From assembly GCF_054482595.1 (NCBI RefSeq), contig NZ_CM137008.1: a DNA stretch of 64,000 bases. One strand, 5' to 3'. This document shows positions 42,930-54,339 of this stretch, one piece after another (position 1 is the stretch's first letter; each line of letters starts with the position of its first letter). The notes under the pieces are model-generated. The model worked only from the letters and a program-made list of their open reading frames with translations, was not told the origin of the DNA and did not search any database. Position numbers and translations under genes: made by a program.

Positions 42930-44114
42930 TTAATTTGCGGCTTCCTGACGATGAAAACCTCGCCACCAGACCAGTAAGTTAACCAGGGCAATTGTCGCGC
43001 CAGCCAGACAAACGCCAGCCCAACCGCCATGTTGCCAGGCTGAGGCTGAAATTAGCGAACCGGCGGCACCGCCAATAAAGTAGCTGGTCATGTAACCTGC
43101 AGTCAGGCGATTACGCGCATCAGGATGTATTCGATAAATTACCGTCTGGTTAGTGATATGCACGCCCTGTACGGTGAGGTCCAGCACCAGAATGCCGATA
43201 ATCAACGCCAGTACGGAAGTGTGACCAAACCAGATTGCCAGCCATGAAAGTAATAGCAGCAGCAGACCGAAAGTTGTGGTGTGGTGCGATTTGCCCTTGT
43301 CGGCAAAACCGCCCGCCGGACGAGCGCTCAACGCTCCGGCAGCTCCCGCAAGCCCAAACAGACCAATGACACCATCGCTGTAGTTAAAAGGTGGAGCGGC
43401 AAGCAAAAAGGCCATTGAGGTCCAGAGAATGCTGAAGTTGGCAAAGGTCAGGCAGCCCAGCAACGCGCGGGTGCGCAGGATCTTATTGCTGATAAACATA
43501 CTGAAAACGGAACCCAACAACTGTGGGTAATTGAGGTGGGTTTCTGATTTCATTTGTGGCAGACCACGCCATAATGCCAGCGCCATCAGTGCCATTAACA
43601 CCGAGGCAACCCAAAAGACGGTGCGCCAGCCGCCGAGGTTTGCCAGTAACCCGGCAACGGTTCGTGCCAGCAAGATCCCCAACAGCAGACCGCTCATAAT
43701 GGTGCCAACCACTTTGCCGCGTTTGTCCGGTGAAGCCAGCGTCGCTGCCAGTGGAACCAGAATTTGTGCCACGACTGAGAATAAACCGGTTAATGCCGTA
43801 CCGAGGATCATCATCGCCAGCGACTGACTGCTGGCGGTAATCAACATGCCGCATGCCGCCAGTAAGGTCATCGAGACAATCAGGCGGCGGCGTTCAAACA
43901 TATCACCGAGGGGAACAAGAAACAGTAGACCTGCGGCATAGCCCAACTGCGCGGCGGTAACAATAAAGCCTGCCGAACTGGCGGAAAGGGAAAAGTTACG
44001 CGCGATGGTGTCGAGCAATGGCTGGGCGTAATAGTTACTGGCGACCGCCAGACCGGTGGCGATAGACATCAGCACGATCAGCGCCGGGCTAAGCTCATGA
44101 TTAGGTTTAGTCAT
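42930..44114 (-). CDS. ygaY: YgaY, MFS transporter, intact 394-aa reading frame
   Basis: Uninterrupted MFS-like ORF (12 predicted TMS pattern) between ygaZ and proX. Confidence 0.85.
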   Translation of the reverse strand: MTKPNHELSPALIVLMSIATGLAVASNYYAQPLLDTIARNFSLSASSAGFIVTAAQLGYAAGLLFLVPLGDMFERRRLIVSMTLLAACGMLITASSQSLAMMILGTALTGLFSVVAQILVPLAATLASPDKRGKVVGTIMSGLLLGILLARTVAGLLANLGGWRTVFWVASVLMALMALALWRGLPQMKSETHLNYPQLLGSVFSMFISNKILRTRALLGCLTFANFSILWTSMAFLLAAPPFNYSDGVIGLFGLAGAAGALSARPAGGFADKGKSHHTTTFGLLLLLLSWLAIWFGHTSVLALIIGILVLDLTVQGVHITNQTVIYRIHPDARNRLTAGYMTSYFIGGAAGSLISASAWQHGGWAGVCLAGATIALVNLLVWWRGFHRQEAAN

Positions 44115-44305: not shown

Positions 44306-45298
44306 TTACTTCTGCGCTGCCAACGCCTCATTCACCCAGCCATCGAACTGTTGCTGGTGGGCTTTGATCCAGCCATCAACGTGGCCCTGAATATCGCCTT
44401 CTGAGGCTTTGCCGTCATGCATAATGGCGTTCTGGGCGTTAATATCTGCCACTGGCAACTGCATAATGGCAAACAGTTTCGCTGCTGCCGGGTTTTTCTC
44501 GGCCCAGGCTTTATTGGCAACGATATGCATGGTGCTGACCGGGAAGCCGTAATTCGCGCCATTCGGCAGTTTGGTATCGGCATTTTTATCGCCCGGCAGT
44601 GCAGAGAACGGCACCTGCAACCAGACCACATCTTTCCCTGGCTTCAGCTCATTACTCACCCAGTACGGCGTCCAGGTGTAGTAAAACACCGGTTTGCCCT
44701 CTTTGTAACGACTGATGGTGTCAGCCATCATCGCCGCGTAGTTCCCCTGATTATGCGTCACGGTATTGGTCAGTTCATACGCGGCAAGCTGGTGGTTGAT
44801 CGCCCCTTCGCAGCCCCAGCCAGGGTTACAGCCAGTCAAATCCGCTTTACCGTCGCCGTTGGTATCGAACAGTTTGGCGATCTTCGGATCTTTTAGTTGT
44901 GCGATGTTGGTGATTTTGTACTGGTCGGCGGTTTTCTTATCGATCAGGTAACCCTGTGCCGCGCCGTTAACAAATACCCCTTCACGATAAAATTTCTTAT
45001 CGCCACCGGCAGCTTCGTACATGTTGTCATGCAGTGGCGTCCAGTTCACGGCGGTGAAGGTTGCATCGCCGGAAGCAAGCGAGGTGTAGCCAACGTTGTA
45101 ATCCACTTCGCTGGGTTTATTGACGGTATAACCTAATTTCTCCAGCGCACGACTGACCAGCAGTGTCTGGAAGGTTTCTTCGGTGATGGTGCTTTGAACT
45201 GGATTAACAGTAATGCCTTTGCCCGGCAGATCGGCAGCAAAAGTTTGTGTAGAGATAAGCGTGGCAAACGCTGTCGCAAAAAGTACGCTATGTCGCAT
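44306..45298 (-). CDS. proX: ProX, glycine betaine/proline ABC transporter periplasmic binding protein (330 aa)
   Basis: Recognised start [21 protein letters not shown] (signal peptide) at ATG 45296..45298; ORF track began 48 nt upstream. Confidence 0.93.
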
Positions 45299-45354: not shown

Positions 45355-46419
45355 TTACTTAATGAATGGGCGGGTCAGCAGACCGACAGGGCCAGTGGTG
45401 TACCAGCGACGGTTGCCGCGACTGCGTGAGTCGCGCCCAACGGCCTGCGTCAGACGATCGAGGATAATGGCGAGGATCACAATCCCGACGCCGCCAACGG
45501 TGGCAAGCCCCATATCCAGACGACCGATACCGCGAAGTACCATCTGACCCAGCCCGCCGACGGCAATCATCGAGGCGATGACCACCATAGAAAGGGCCAG
45601 CATCAGCGTCTGGTTAACGCCCGCCATAATGGTCGGCATCGCCAGCGGTAACTGAACTTTGAACAGCATCTGGCGCGGGCTGGCACCGAATGAGCGCGAG
45701 GCTTCAATCAGATCCGCCGGAACCTGGTTAATCCCCAGAATGGTCAGACGGATAATCGGCGGCAGAGCAAAGATGATCGTCACCACCACGCCCGGCACGT
45801 TACCGATACCAAATAGCATGACGATTGGCACCAGATAAACAAACGCTGGCGTGGTCTGCATGGCATCAAGCAGTGGACGAATAATTTTCGCCGCTCGCGG
45901 ACTTCTCGCCAGCCAGATCCCCAACGGCAAACCGATGACGATACAGAACAGCAGGGCGGTTAACACCAGCGCCAGAGTCACCATTGCCTGCGACCAGGCA
46001 CCGATTGCGCCGATGGCAATCAGCGAAACCAGCGTCGCCACACCCATTCCGACCCCGGAAATCTGCCAGGCGATGAGAGCGAAAACGATAATCGCCACCG
46101 GTGCGGGCATACCCAGCAGCAATTGCTGGAAACCGTTGAGGATATAATCAACCGGAACGCGCACGCCCTGGAAGACGGGACGGAAATGGGTAACGACCCA
46201 GTCGATCCCTTCAGTGACCCAACTGTCGAGCGGGATCAGCGTTTTATGGAACGGATCGAGAATATTAAAATGCTCGACGTTTGGCGCAGGCGTACTGGTC
46301 AGCCAGTCAGCACCACCGCCGTCAGTCGGTGCAGTCGCCGGTGTACCCCAGGCGTCTGCGGATTGTGCGGCACTGTCCGCCGCTGGCGTGGTATCCCACG
46401 GATTATTTTGATCAGCCAT
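45355..46419 (-). CDS. proW: ProW, glycine betaine/proline ABC transporter permease (354 aa)
   Basis: [25 protein letters not shown]... followed by an ABC permease domain; overlaps proV stop. Confidence 0.93.
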
Positions 46420-47614
46420 TATTTACCCCCTCACGATCTAAAGCGCGCAGCAGCATTCCTTTCGAAATGATGCCGACATACTGTTGGTCCTCGTCGACCA
46501 CGGGCACCGCACAGGGTGCCTGTCCGACATGAGAGAGCAACTCGCTAAGAGGCGTTTGTGCATCGACTGCTAACGGCGCATCAATCAGCGCCGCATCAAG
46601 ACCTTGCTGCTGCGTTAACGCGGTTTTAAGCGAATCGATGGAGACAGCGCCGACAAACTTATTACCGCGTTCGATAACGTAGCCATATTCGCGATCTTCA
46701 TCCTGCAATAATTTCAGTGCCGAACGTGGGCCGAAGCCAGGGGTTTTACGAATTAAGCCATTTGGTGTCCGGCGGGCAATATCTTTCGCACTGAATACCT
46801 GACTAATATCAACGCCACGGAAGAAGGTACGGACATAATCATTCGCCGGATTATTGAGAATTTCATCCGGTGTGCCGACCTGTACCACTTCACCATTTTG
46901 CATAATGGCAATTCGGTCGCCAATACGCATGGCTTCATCGAGATCGTGGGAAATAAAGACAATGGTGCGCTGATGTTTCGCCTGTAATTTTACCAGCTCA
47001 TCCTGCATCTCGGTGCGAATTAATGGATCGAGCGCCGAGAAGGCTTCATCCATTAATAAAATATCCGGATTAATTGCTAACGCGCGGGCTAATCCCACAC
47101 GTTGACGCATCCCGCCAGAGAGTTCATCCGGGTAGCTGTGGGCATAATTTTCCAGCCCGACCTGACGCAGTGCATCAATGGCTTTTTCCCGGCGTTCTTC
47201 GGCATTAATTCCGGCCAATTCCATACCAAACGCAGTATTGTCCAGCACGGTCATATGCGGCATTAAGGCAAAGGACTGGAAGACCATCGCAATCTTTTTT
47301 CTGCGCACCTCACGGAGTTCGGCGTCGGATATTTTGGCAATATCCACACCATCAATCAGTACTTGCCCGCGGGTGGGTTCAATCAGGCGATTGAGAAGGC
47401 GTACCATTGTGGATTTACCCGAACCGGATAATCCCATGATGACAAATATCTCGCCTTCTTCAATGGCCAGACTGGCGTCTTTTACGCCAAGCGATAGCCC
47501 AGTTTTTTCCAGAATTTGTTCTTTTGAAAGTCCTTGTTCGATATATTTGAAAGCTCGCTGTGGATGCTCACCAAATATTTTATAAAGATTTTTAATTTCT
47601 AATTTAATTGCCAT
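46412..47614 (-). CDS. proV: ProV, glycine betaine/proline ABC transporter ATPase with C-terminal CBS domains (400 aa)
   Basis: Walker [13 protein letters not shown] signature LSGGMRQR, then CBS pair. Confidence 0.95.
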
Positions 47615-47969
47615 GCAATAGAAAGATTCCTGTTATTTGTTTATGTCGATACATTACCCAATGGAAATAGTCACTTTTTTCTACCCTAACATACTGAGAA
47701 TCTGAGGCAACCCCTGAGGGCAAATGTGGCATGAATATTGATGTGAGCAAATCGCCGGAATTTCCCGTGATATAAGGGCTGAGAGCAAATCGAGAAAAGT
47801 TGATATTTTTTGTCAAAGATAGCGAAAAAACGCCTGAATATTGTGGTTTCAGGCGAATAATGCAACAGAGTATCAGTGTAGATCACCACAAAATATTTGC
47901 GTGATAAAAAGCTATTTGGCGGGAATTATTTCCCTGTCGCGGGTAGTGATATTTTTGAAAATAACACCC

Positions 47970-48938
<969 letters not shown>

Positions 48939-51083
48939 TTAAAGTGCACAGGAGACGCAGCCTTCAATTTCAGTGCCTTCCAGCGCCATCTGACGCAGGC
49001 GGATGTAATAGAGCGTTTTGATACCCTTGCGCCAGGCGTAAATCTGCGCTTTGTTGATATCGCGAGTGGTGGCGGTATCGGGGAAAAACAGCGTCAGCGA
49101 CAGCCCCTGATCGACATGGCGAGTCGCTTCCGCGTAGGTGTCGATGATCTTTTCTGCGCCGATTTCGTAAGCGTCCTGATATAGCGCCAGATTTTCGTTA
49201 GTCATAAACGGGGCAGGGTAGTAAACGCGTCCTGTTTTGCCCTCTTTGCGTATCTCTACTTTCGCCACAATCGGATGAATACTCGACGTAGCATGGTTGA
49301 TATAAGAGATAGAACCGGTTGGCGGCACCGCCTGGAGATTCTGGTTGTAAATGCCGTATCGCATCACGTCATCGCGCAGTTGCGCCCACATCTCACGGGT
49401 AGGTAACGTAATACCGCTGCGGGCAAACAGTTCGCCAACTTTCGCCGTTTTCGGCTGCCAGTTACCTTGCAGATATTGGCTGAAATATTCACCACTGGCA
49501 TAGCGTGACTGTTTGAACCCGGCGAAGGTTTGACCGCGTTCGCGCGCCAGCAACATCGAGGTACGCAGTGCGTGCCAGGTGATGGTATAGAAATAGAGAT
49601 TGGTGAAATCCAGTGCTTCCGGCGAACCATAAGCGATGCCTTCCCTCGCCAGATAACCATGTAAATTCATCTGCCCCAGTCCGATGGCGTGCGAGGCGGC
49701 ATTTCCGGCTTCGATGGAGGGCACGCTGCGGATATGACTCATATCTGACACCGCCGTTAAACCGCGTACGGCAGTCTCTACCGTGCGGGCAAAGTCGGGG
49801 GAATCCATGGTGTGGGCAATATTCAACGAACCTAAATTGCAGGAGATATCATGGCCTGTGCGGGCATAGTCGAGATTCTCGTTATACTCTGAGGCGCTGT
49901 TAACCTGCAAAATTTCTGAGCAGAGATTACTCATATTTATGCGCCCGGCGATAGGGTTAGCACGGTTTACCGTGTCTTCATACATGATGTACGGATAGCC
50001 AGACTCAAACTGGATTTCTGCCAGTCGCTGGAAGAAATCACGGGCGTTGAGGTATTTTTTGCGAATGCGTTCATCGGCAACCAGTTCGTCATAGTGTTGG
50101 CTGATGGCCACATCGGCAAACGGCTTGCCATAAACTCGCTCTACGTCATAAGGCGAAAACAGCGCCATCTGCGCATTCTCTTTTGCCAGATGGAAAGTGA
50201 TATCCGGGATCACCACGCCCAGCGACAGTGTTTTAATGCGGATTTTTTCGTCGGCATTTTCCCGTTTCGTGTCGAGAAAACGCAGAATATCGGGATGATG
50301 AGCATGTAAATAGACTGCACCAGCCCCCTGACGAGCGCCGAGTTGGTTGGCATAGGAAAATGCGTCTTCCAGCATTTTCATCACCGGAATTACGCCAGAA
50401 GATTGATTTTCAATACGTTTAATTGGCGCGCCCGCTTCTCGCAGATTCGACAGCAAAAATGCCACGCCGCCGCCGCGTTTCGACAGTTGTAGTGCGGAAT
50501 TTACCGCCCGGCCAATCGACTCCATATTGTCTTCAATACGCAGCAGAAAACAGGAAACCAGTTCGCCGCGCTGCTGCTTACCGCAGTTGAGGAATGTCGG
50601 CGTGGCTGGCTGAAAGCGTCCTGACAGCATCTCATCAGTGAGCTGCGTCGCCAGTGTTTCATCGCCTTGTGCCAGCGTCAGCGCCACCATCGTGACTCGA
50701 TCGGCAAAATCTTCCAGATAACGTTTACCGTCGAATGTCTTCAACGTATAGCTGGTGTAAAACTTCCATGCCCCGAGGAATGTCTGGAAACGAAAACCGC
50801 TGGTGTGTGCGTGGGCAAACAGCGTAATGACAAAGTCGCGAGGGTAGCGATTAAGAACGCTTTCATCATAGTAACCTTCGTTGACCAGCCAGTTCAGGCG
50901 CTGCTGCTGGCTACTGAAGGTCACACTGTTCGGACGCACATGCGTCGCAATAAAGGCGTCAACGGCCTGGCGGTCTTTATCGAACTGAATGCGACCTGCG
51001 CTATCGTAGAGGTTAAGCATCGCATTCAGCGCGTGATAATCCATCGTTTCCTGCGTCAGGCGTTCTGCGGTTGTCGTTGCCAA
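48939..51083 (-). CDS. nrdE: NrdE, class Ib ribonucleotide reductase alpha subunit (714 aa)
   Basis: [27 protein letters not shown]...; RNR large-subunit catalytic motifs including NLCSEI. Confidence 0.95.
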
Positions 51084-53267: not shown

Positions 53268-53934
53268 GCTAATGCTCCTTAATAAAAGCGTAATGGGATG
53301 TTAATGGAGATGAAAGCAGTGGATCTCATTGCCATCTGCATTTTCGCATAGCGTATATCGCTGGCTATGACTAATCAATTAGTGAAAAATTTTTATTTAG
53401 TCAGTTTTTGTAGATAAAATATTCCGTAACGGCTCGTTTTTTGTACATTGTGGATTTTTACATGCCGATATGATTTATTTTCAATTAAATCAATTAGATA
53501 TGACCTTGCCTTTAATTTCACTAATGAAAGTTTGGGGGTGAGGTAACGCTATAAGCGTAGAGAATTCGGTGTATGTCGTGACCGGGTCATTTACAGCATT
53601 TTTTATGCCAGAAAATGTACATTAACAGCAGAAAGCACCAGTGATGGATGTTTTCTTTTATTCTGTTATATTGCATTTTTATTCACTTTGGTTTTGTCAG
53701 GCTTGCGGAATTAGCGAGCAGAGAGCGCCGTTCTGTTCACCAATAATCTAAATTACTCATCAAAATGGCTAATATATAATCTTGAAATTATTCTGAGAGT
53801 TTCAGAAAATAACAGCTGAAATAATCTCGCGCAGGACTGTAAATAGATTAAATTTTGTGGAAATATAATAAGTGATCGCTTACACTACGCGACGAAATAC
53901 TTTTTTGTTTTGGCGTTAAAAGGTTTTCTTTATT

Positions 53935-54339
53935 ATGTCCGTAATGTTACAAAGTTTAAATAACATTCGCACCCTCCGTGCGATGGCTCGCGAATTCTCC
54001 ATTGACGTTCTTGAAGAAATGCTCGAAAAATTCAGGGTTGTCACTAAAGAAAGACGTGAAGAAGAAGAACAGCAGCAGCGTGAACTGGCAGAGCGCCAGG
54101 AAAAAATTAGCACCTGGCTGGAGCTGATGAAAGCTGACGGAATTAACCCGGAAGAGTTATTGGGTAATAGCTCTGCTGCTGCACCACGCGCTGGTAAAAA
54201 ACGCCAGCCGCGTCCGGCGAAATATAAATTCACCGATGTTAACGGTGAAACTAAAACCTGGACCGGTCAGGGCCGTACACCGAAGCCAATCGCTCAGGCG
54301 CTGGCAGAAGGTAAATCTCTCGACGATTTCCTGATCTAA
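53935..54339 (+). CDS. stpA: StpA, H-NS paralog nucleoid protein / RNA chaperone (134 aa)
   Basis: [36 protein letters not shown]...[10 protein letters not shown], the H-NS family DNA-binding motif. Confidence 0.95.

Follow-up and report, generated by a model that had tools for sequence, protein, structure and literature searches.

The 355 bp that separate nrdF from proV in the window (the whole 64,000-nucleotide stretch of DNA analysed here) are very probably the canonical Escherichia coli region controlling transcription of proU (proVWX), the salt-induced operon for an osmoprotectant importer, with the nrdF 3' UTR adjoining at the nrdF end, a reading to which we assign a probability of roughly 95% on the strength of its homology to the K-12 locus. 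The control region found here is intact, ordinary, already known and well characterised, and its presence simply confirms that the window is ordinary E. coli chromosome. ProU is a textbook example of osmoregulation and of H-NS silencing from within a transcription unit, and what the present work adds is modest and comparative, setting a P2 -10 element and an RNase III hairpin with an order-wide distribution against a P1 promoter, a terminator-like hairpin and a conserved sequence block that are limited to the Enterobacteriaceae.

The interval had been described as a 355-bp non-coding gap at 47615-47969, and the open reading frame listing shows these coordinates to be exact. Both nrdF and proV lie on the minus strand, a point that the original prediction did not state, so that 'upstream of proV' corresponds to higher coordinates. 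The interval and the genes around it are as follows.

47970 to 48929, minus strand: nrdF coding sequence, class Ib ribonucleotide reductase beta subunit, upstream flank (open reading frame, NCBIfam, RefSeq annotation)
47972-47970, minus strand: nrdF stop codon, TGA
47615 to 47969, minus strand: nrdF-proV intergenic interval, 355 bp (open reading frame listing)
47612-47614, minus strand: proV start codon
46412 to 47614, minus strand: proV coding sequence, ATP-binding subunit of the ProU glycine betaine/proline ABC importer (open reading frame, NCBIfam NF007480/NF008196/NF008334 set)
45355-46419, downstream of proV: proW (open reading frame and NCBIfam equivalog)
44306-45298, downstream of proW: proX (open reading frame and NCBIfam equivalog)

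NCBIfam equivalogs identified ProV (925 bits) together with ProW and ProX (NF007480, NF008196, NF008334), while NrdF matched NF007182 with 634 bits and TIGR04171 with 477 bits. An 801-bp query across the interval found matches of 95-100% identity in 5420 of 5426 complete E. coli genomes, and in the matched genomes this region always lay between genes annotated as nrdF and proV in RefSeq. Most Enterobacteriaceae genera with nrdF upstream keep a nrdF-proV spacer of 330-412 bp, and a GC trough of 0.29-0.31 runs across the proV start. Within it, positions 47501-47700 have a GC content of 0.30 against a window mean of 0.527, so that, of 2552 overlapping 200-bp stretches in the window, this one shares the highest AT content with two others. 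Given the retained spacer length and the AT trough, the interval is more than a chance gap.

Curated features of the K-12 locus (Rashid et al. 2023, PMC10656529, introduction and Supplementary Data 1A) were placed on window coordinates through alignment with K-12, and all of the transferred features land on the expected sequences, which supports the proU assignment. The promoters and H-NS elements anticipated upstream of proV are indeed found there, since 47615-47969 contains P1, the upstream regulatory element (URE), P2, the IHF site and the beginning of the downstream regulatory element (DRE). The interval is ~98% identical to that of K-12, and at this level of identity H-NS and IHF binding, osmotic induction and the start sites would be expected to carry over. 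The H-NS footprints (Lucht 1994) and the start-site mapping (Dattananda 1991), both made in K-12, are used here as cited in PMC10656529, and H-NS ChIP and 3C at K-12 proU are reported in PMC10656529 and bioRxiv 10.64898/2026.02.10.705075. Genome-wide tables of start sites and operons gave no usable entry here. Read from the nrdF end, the elements are as follows.

47882 to 47969, minus strand: nrdF-proximal 3' UTR (conservation profile, alignment)
47722 to 47905, minus strand: URE, P2 -229 to -47 (PMC10656529, transferred by alignment)
47905-47886, 47874-47853, 47850-47822, 47816-47786, 47779-47751 and 47740-47719, minus strand: six H-NS DNase I footprints of the URE, obtained in vitro (PMC10656529)
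47875 to 47881, minus strand: P1 (sigma-S) -10 element CTACACT (K-12 start site transferred by alignment)
47867/47866, minus strand: P1 transcription start, K-12 map positions 1704/1705 (Dattananda 1991, as given in PMC10656529 Supplementary Data 1A)
47825 to 47855, minus strand: terminator-like hairpin with U6 (stem-loop 47855-47831, U6 47830-47825)
47760 to 47782, minus strand: near-invariant 23-bp block CTCAGCCCTTATATCACGGGAAAT (= CTCAGCCCTTATATCAYGGGAAAT), P2 -107 to -85, inside the URE
47683 to 47710, minus strand: P2 (sigma-70) core promoter (PMC10656529 Supplementary Data 1A, transferred by alignment)
47710-47705, minus strand: P2 -35 element TTGCCT, with a 16-bp spacer to the -10
47688-47683, minus strand: P2 -10 element TAGGGT, GC-rich
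47676/47675, minus strand: P2 transcription start, by homology to K-12
47651 to 47708, minus strand: IHF binding site, P2 -33 to +25, with an A6 tract at 47680-47675 (Khodr 2015 as cited in PMC10656529, alignment)
47498 to 47715, minus strand: DRE, P2 -40 to +177, covering P2, the 5' UTR and proV nt 1-117 (PMC10656529 and alignment)
47646 to 47655, plus strand: H-NS high-affinity nucleation site 1, at about P2 +25 (motif scan; binding by homology)
47628 to 47631, minus strand: putative Shine-Dalgarno sequence AGGA of proV (read from sequence)
47611-47566, minus strand: strongest H-NS footprint, over proV codons 2-16
47538 to 47547, plus strand: H-NS high-affinity nucleation site 2, TCGATATATT, at about P2 +130 within proV (identical to K-12)
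47380 to 47469, minus strand: RNase III processing hairpin in proV, P2 ~+206 to +295 (PMC10656529 Supplementary Data 1A)

These elements are consistent with the following model, established experimentally in K-12. Transcription of proVWX, shown in K-12 to arise chiefly from the sigma-70 promoter P2, would do so here as well. The GC-rich TAGGGT and the 16-bp spacer would give a poor open complex at P2 unless cytoplasmic K-glutamate rises, and because its -10 is GC-rich, P2 would be intrinsically K-glutamate-responsive. At low osmolarity, H-NS would nucleate at the two high-affinity DRE sites flanking the proV start codon, spread over the AT-rich DNA and bridge to the URE (and to ygaY), and IHF would bend the P2 region, with the result that P2 is silenced. 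Hyperosmotic shock would then bring a K+ influx that both loosens the H-NS bridges and stimulates P2. The sigma-S-dependent P1, ~250 nt upstream of proV, would be largely cryptic, its transcripts being terminated early, and upon a hypo-osmotic shift rapid decay of the proU mRNA would start at the RNase III hairpin inside proV. The original prediction proposed measuring H-NS occupancy and mapping start sites under low and high osmolarity; for K-12, such data were published long ago.

A generic promoter and terminator consensus scan of the region gave zero matches, which is not evidence of absence: the P2 -10 fits 3 of 6 consensus positions, P1 is of the sigma-S type, and the 9-nt loop of the hairpin exceeds the 8 nt that the scan allows. 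Sequence scans alone would therefore have missed these non-consensus promoters and the 9-nt-loop hairpin.

The comparative evidence comes from 80 Enterobacterales loci, gathered in one ProV scan of species-representative genomes, in which nrdF is the upstream neighbour in 58 of the 80 and motifs were counted at fixed distances from the proV ATG. P2 (TTGYCW-N16-TAGGGT, with up to two mismatches) is present in 74/80 loci, 67 of the 80 having a -10 of exactly TAGGGT, and the 5'-arm motif of the RNase III hairpin occurs in 80/80. In a 24-species alignment the near-invariant parts are the P2 core with its spacer, the Shine-Dalgarno sequence and ATG, the synonymous sites of the first ~15 codons, H-NS site 2 and the RNase III hairpin. 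Such stretches indicate that selection acts on the DNA or RNA as such, in agreement with the published mechanism. In these loci the GC-rich P2 -10 and the intragenic RNase III hairpin are conserved across the order Enterobacterales, and P1, the hairpin downstream of it and the 23-bp block are restricted to the Enterobacteriaceae. The P2 sequence of the window (47710-47675) is identical to that of K-12, with 61 nt from its start site to the proV ATG here and 60 nt in K-12.

Control had been expected to continue beyond the intergenic DNA into the first part of proV, and this is borne out by the DRE, which runs to 47498, by H-NS site 2, by the RNase III hairpin and by a negative regulatory element (NRE) extending ~1100 bp into the gene. 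The last of these is genetically defined (PMC10656529). The DRE has a GC content of 0.33, the first ~15 codons of proV are almost invariant at synonymous sites in 23 genera, and the run ACAGGAA...TATTGCATG around the Shine-Dalgarno sequence is conserved in ~20 genera. The 96 nt over the RNase III site (47380-47475) fold with -38.8 kcal/mol (z -4.55). A K-12 Term-seq 3' end at genome position 2805035, scored as Rho-independent (Adams 2021, PMC7815308 supplement), corresponds to proV nt 221, P2 +281 and window position 47394, on the 3' arm of this hairpin. A perfect H-NS motif at 43131-43140 was considered as a ygaY bridge partner of the DRE; on the K-12 map it lies ~950 bp beyond the start of the proU11 fragment, and we claim no link.

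Differences between the window and K-12 are few. K-12 MG1655 has an interval of 353 bp, with no RefSeq annotation inside it, and the 355-bp interval here carries two additional single bases (47798 and 47632) and seven substitutions, with three further synonymous-site differences in early proV. The locus and its flanks are otherwise the same: P1, P2, the IHF site, H-NS site 2 and the promoter hexamers show no change, and in the conserved RNase III hairpin there is one synonymous-site difference (47423). Both extra bases are shared with E. albertii and a divergent E. coli lineage, and 47632, the C immediately 5' of the proV Shine-Dalgarno sequence that K-12 does not have, is present in nearly all other aligned genera. 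Because these outgroups share the extra bases of the window, the 353 bp of K-12 reflect two derived 1-bp deletions.

One of the seven substitutions, at 47652, falls in H-NS site 1, which reads TCGATACATT in the window and TCGATATATT in K-12, with G on the proV-sense minus strand here and A in K-12. An exact 49-mer carrying the G allele was found in 1956/5317 E. coli genomes, and the K-12 base is also that of E. albertii and the divergent E. coli lineage; by this comparison the G allele is derived. Even with the SNP, site 1 departs from the TCGATAAATT consensus at a single position, and it is a predicted high-affinity site. Across the 80 loci, site 2 (AATATATCGA, with up to one mismatch) recurs at proV +67 in 41/80 and site 1 in 13/80. 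Together, the SNP in site 1 and the two 1-bp insertions relative to K-12 mean that quantitative behaviour could differ slightly. With about a third of sequenced E. coli carrying a SNP in one of the two nucleation sites, nature may also offer a potential test of the nucleation model.

At its other end, the interval includes DNA that plays no part in this control. The ~65-90 bp nearest nrdF (47969 to ~47880) show no conservation between genera and differ in length from one to another, and when folded as 96 nt this stretch is no better than shuffled sequence (z -0.97), with only weak hairpins in E. coli. Of these bases, ~41 fall outside the NRE (start 47928) and ~64 outside the URE (start 47905). 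This nrdF-proximal part is nrdF 3' UTR and not proU control DNA.

It could be argued from this that the whole interval is mostly passive spacer, made up of nrdF 3' UTR and terminator, in which just the short P2 matters and the 355-bp length is meaningless. Such a view would draw on the unconserved, length-variable ~90 bp nearest nrdF, on the terminator-like hairpin 115-145 nt beyond the nrdF stop in E. coli, and on the disputed in vivo support for H-NS binding to upstream curved DNA (a note in PMC10656529 Supplementary Data 1A). We regard it as very unlikely, however, as, from genus to genus, the P1 -10 and the hairpin keep their spacing to the ATG within a few bp, the length variation lying upstream of P1, and as the region between P1 and P2 is filled by conserved blocks at 47811-47800 and 47782-47760 and by the six H-NS footprints. 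Furthermore, published deletion and 3C data assign a function to the URE (PMC10656529), and in K-12 a URE deletion that keeps P2 alters the repression/induction ratios, as cited in the same source. The URE has a GC content of 0.38, and its AA/TT helical periodicity, a proxy for curvature, was reached by 111/2000 shuffles, a marginal signal (p about 0.04-0.1).

Within the proU control region, P1 and the structure just downstream of it deserve closer attention. The P1 segment is identical in sequence to K-12, pointing by homology to sigma-S dependence, and its start lies ~252 nt from the proV ATG in the window and 250 nt in K-12. In 19 of the 80 Enterobacterales loci the P1 -10 (CTAYACT) stands at an equal distance from the ATG. 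Starting 11 nt past the P1 start, at +12 to +42, is a hairpin formed by a perfect 8-bp inverted repeat with five G-C pairs (CGCCUGAA-9 nt-UUCAGGCG) followed by U6, with a fold energy of -12.6 kcal/mol (z -3.0 to -3.2). It overlaps two of the Lucht 1994 H-NS footprints (47874-47853 and 47850-47822). The stem and U6 fit the form of an intrinsic terminator, namely a G+C-rich stem-loop directly before a U-tract, but the 9-nt loop is longer than usual, the structure begins 11 nt past a promoter start, and in most genera the U-tract is unconserved though the stem is kept. In E. coli no other canonical terminator-like structure lies between nrdF and proV, and this putative terminator probably ends nrdHIEF transcripts in that species. 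The K-12 Term-seq tables of Adams 2021 (PMC7815308 supplement) contain no 3' end near the hairpin; as nrdHIEF is weakly expressed under the conditions used, this absence carries no weight for nrdHIEF termination.

Conservation of the stem is clear from the pairing itself. Across 24 species, 77.9% of cells are paired, as against 22-48% in slid controls, and the 18 cells with double-sided changes were reached by 0 of 500 shuffles, with variants that include CGCCTG/CAGGCG, CACCTG/CAGGTG, CGTCTG/CAGACG, CGGCTG/CAGCCG, CCTCTG/CGGAGG and AGCCTG/CAGGCT. Loop length varies from 5 to 9 nt between species, a variation that speaks for a hairpin and against a protein-binding palindrome. The CTGAA...TTCAG core is present in 18/80 loci, and a direct hairpin search brings this to ~24. 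The U-tract is not conserved alongside the stem: it is good only in Escherichia, Salmonella and Citrobacter, and among the ~24 loci the tails elsewhere mostly mix A and T, as in GAAATTTCC, and have 2-4 T in 8. RNAalifold returned no structure from a 53-column alignment of the hairpin, because several genera in it are without one, and pair counting and a longer alignment recovered the hairpin. A long-range pair proposed by RNAalifold, CAGCCCU/AGGGUUG, is invariant on both sides and was not accepted, since it has zero covariation.

A conserved terminator-like hairpin this close to a promoter might be taken as the end of an unannotated gene, such as an sRNA of ~42-48 nt initiated at P1 and ending at the hairpin and U6, or alternatively a small protein might be encoded. 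The compensatory changes in the stem and the several short open reading frames on both strands are compatible with such a gene, yet we hold it to be highly improbable. A search of 46300-49000 against Rfam matched zero families at E <= 1, the U-tract holds up poorly in genera other than Escherichia, Salmonella and Citrobacter (3-4 T in 8), and the Term-seq tables lack a corresponding 3' end. The longest minus-strand open reading frame crossing the interval (47604-47816, 70 codons) is frameshifted in K-12 by two 1-bp indels, for which reason we consider it non-coding, and the region carries indels between genera. In Salmonella, moreover, P1 transcripts reportedly run beyond +60.

Because it begins 11 nt downstream of P1, the hairpin would be contained in both an nrdHIEF read-through transcript and the P1 leader, and it may also attenuate P1 transcripts. 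Compensatory maintenance of the stem, a fixed distance to proV and a poor U-tract suggest that it may serve the P1 leader besides, or instead of, nrdHIEF termination. That it acts chiefly as an attenuator in the P1 leader, as part of the proU module, and not as the nrdHIEF terminator, is a possible but on balance doubtful reading. In its favour, the hairpin keeps its position relative to the proV ATG (-242 to -214) and the P1 -10 across ~24 loci while its distance from the nrdF stop varies, Cedecea loci retain it with nrdF 1.48 kb distant, and many genera carry a separate hairpin straight after the nrdF stop. P1 is also known to be largely cryptic through early termination, although the termination described is Rho-dependent (PMC10656529). 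In E. coli, on the other hand, no other canonical terminator follows nrdF. Rho-dependent P1 termination in Salmonella maps further downstream than the hairpin, at ~+60 to +85. The attenuator and nrdHIEF-terminator roles are compatible and not mutually exclusive.

The second feature to emerge from the alignments is the near-invariant 23-bp block of the URE. The motif CAGCCCTT-N3-TCAYGGGAAA is present in 37/80 loci, all of them Enterobacteriaceae, always 70 bp upstream of the P2 -35, and its conservation across this family matches that of P2 itself. It is kept in Kluyvera and Leclercia loci that are without nrdF, P1 and the hairpin. The block lies mostly beneath one H-NS footprint, with GC-rich invariant bases flanking it, and its RNA fold is non-significant (z 0.02). 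By-eye comparison with a plus-strand extended -10, sigma-E, sigma-32, sigma-54, IHF, CRP and PmrA-type sites gave none that fits the invariant positions.

The conserved hairpin and the 23-bp block are the only leads beyond the textbook picture, and they are modest ones. Their strongest form would hold that the hairpin is a dedicated P1-leader attenuator, melted for instance by Csp-type RNA chaperones, and that the block is the binding site of a sequence-specific factor or an anchor for the URE-DRE bridge, making both uncharacterised cis-elements. We judge this combination unlikely; if it were true, chaperone melting of the hairpin would explain the reported cold activation of P1.

The Salmonella enterica locus retains the same architecture in diverged sequence. 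It too has a 355-bp interval: the P1 -10 CTACACT lies at -267, the hairpin spans -244 to -214, the conserved block is found at -166 and P2 at -96, and H-NS sites occur at -41 and +67. The sequence between these blocks has diverged, however, the P2 -35 is TTGTCT, and a strong separate hairpin lies directly past the nrdF stop. The stem of the P1-proximal hairpin, CACCTGG.../...TTCAGGTG, is compensatory relative to that of E. coli. With H-NS-silenced promoters that have downstream nucleation sites, such as bgl and hdeAB, proU has in common AT-rich DNA over the promoter and early coding sequence, matches to the 10-bp H-NS motif TCGATAAATT and repression from within the unit. Unlike these, proU is a core locus, vertically inherited and conserved across the Enterobacterales rather than horizontally acquired, and its promoter is itself K-glutamate responsive.

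Between nrdF and proV lies a block whose sequence, CTCAGCCCTTATATCAYGGGAAAT, is near-invariant in 37 of the 80 Enterobacterales loci recovered in a ProV-based scan of species-representative genomes, all 37 of them belonging to the Enterobacteriaceae. It is listed here with the other features of this analysis.

47760-47782, minus strand: the block CTCAGCCCTTATATCAYGGGAAAT, near-invariant across loci
47689-47704: 16-bp spacer of P2, the sigma-70 promoter of proU
47646-47655: H-NS nucleation site 1, with a SNP relative to K-12 at 47652
47825-47855, minus strand: terminator-like hairpin, 11 nt downstream of the start of P1, the sigma-S promoter
47885-47894 and 47838-47847: 10-nt inverted repeat, 90% complementary
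43131-43140, plus strand: H-NS motif (10 bp, TCGATAAATT), matched at every position

The block lies at a constant spacing from P2, 70 bp upstream of the -35 element, and is kept in loci that lack nrdF, P1 and the terminator-like hairpin. By-eye comparison of the block with known binding sites and promoters gave no convincing match, and its RNA fold was not significant. The 16-bp P2 spacer is nearly invariant order-wide; in many genera (loci L004, L007, L017 and L024 of the scan, among others) its sequence is CTCAGAATCTGAG, a perfect 6-bp inverted repeat, and that of E. coli, CTCAGATTCTCAG, is not a palindrome.

The stem of the hairpin downstream of P1 shows covariation over some 24 species, with conservation of its U-tract limited to Escherichia, Salmonella and Citrobacter; in many genera besides these three, a separate hairpin stands directly 3' of the nrdF stop codon. 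Within Escherichia, to which its conservation is confined, the inverted repeat joins the DNA immediately 5' of the P1 -10 element with the loop and 3' arm of the hairpin, and could provide an alternative pairing, possible solely in RNA that reads through from nrdF. Further downstream, Adams 2021 (PMC7815308) lists for K-12 a Term-seq 3' end, scored as not Rho-dependent, whose genome position, 2805035, corresponds to approximately 47394 on the minus strand, within proV at P2 +281; there it lies on the RNase III hairpin's 3' arm.

Comparison with K-12 revealed a single difference in nucleation site 1, which reads AATGTATCGA in the window and AATATATCGA in K-12. Among 5317 complete E. coli genomes, 1956 contain the 49-mer bearing the window's allele without a mismatch; since E. 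albertii and one divergent E. coli lineage have the K-12 base, this allele is derived, though common. One base at each of 47798 and 47632 is missing in K-12 but present in E. albertii as well as in a divergent E. coli lineage, so both 1-bp deletions are derived in K-12. Position 47798 lies in sequence alignable within Escherichia only, whereas the C at 47632, whose deletion directly adjoins the proV Shine-Dalgarno AGGA on its 5' side, is present in nearly all other aligned genera.

A second stretch, at approximately 53270-53935, matches the proV start in AT-richness (GC 0.30-0.31). It is the equivalent of the K-12 stpA-alaE intergenic region, which puts the gene of StpA, a paralogue of H-NS, some 6 kb upstream of proU. 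The match to TCGATAAATT, the sole perfect one in the 64-kb window, falls downstream of proX in the ygaY-equivalent region, where local GC is normal, about 950 bp past the start of proU11, a ygaY fragment reported to bridge to the downstream regulatory element.
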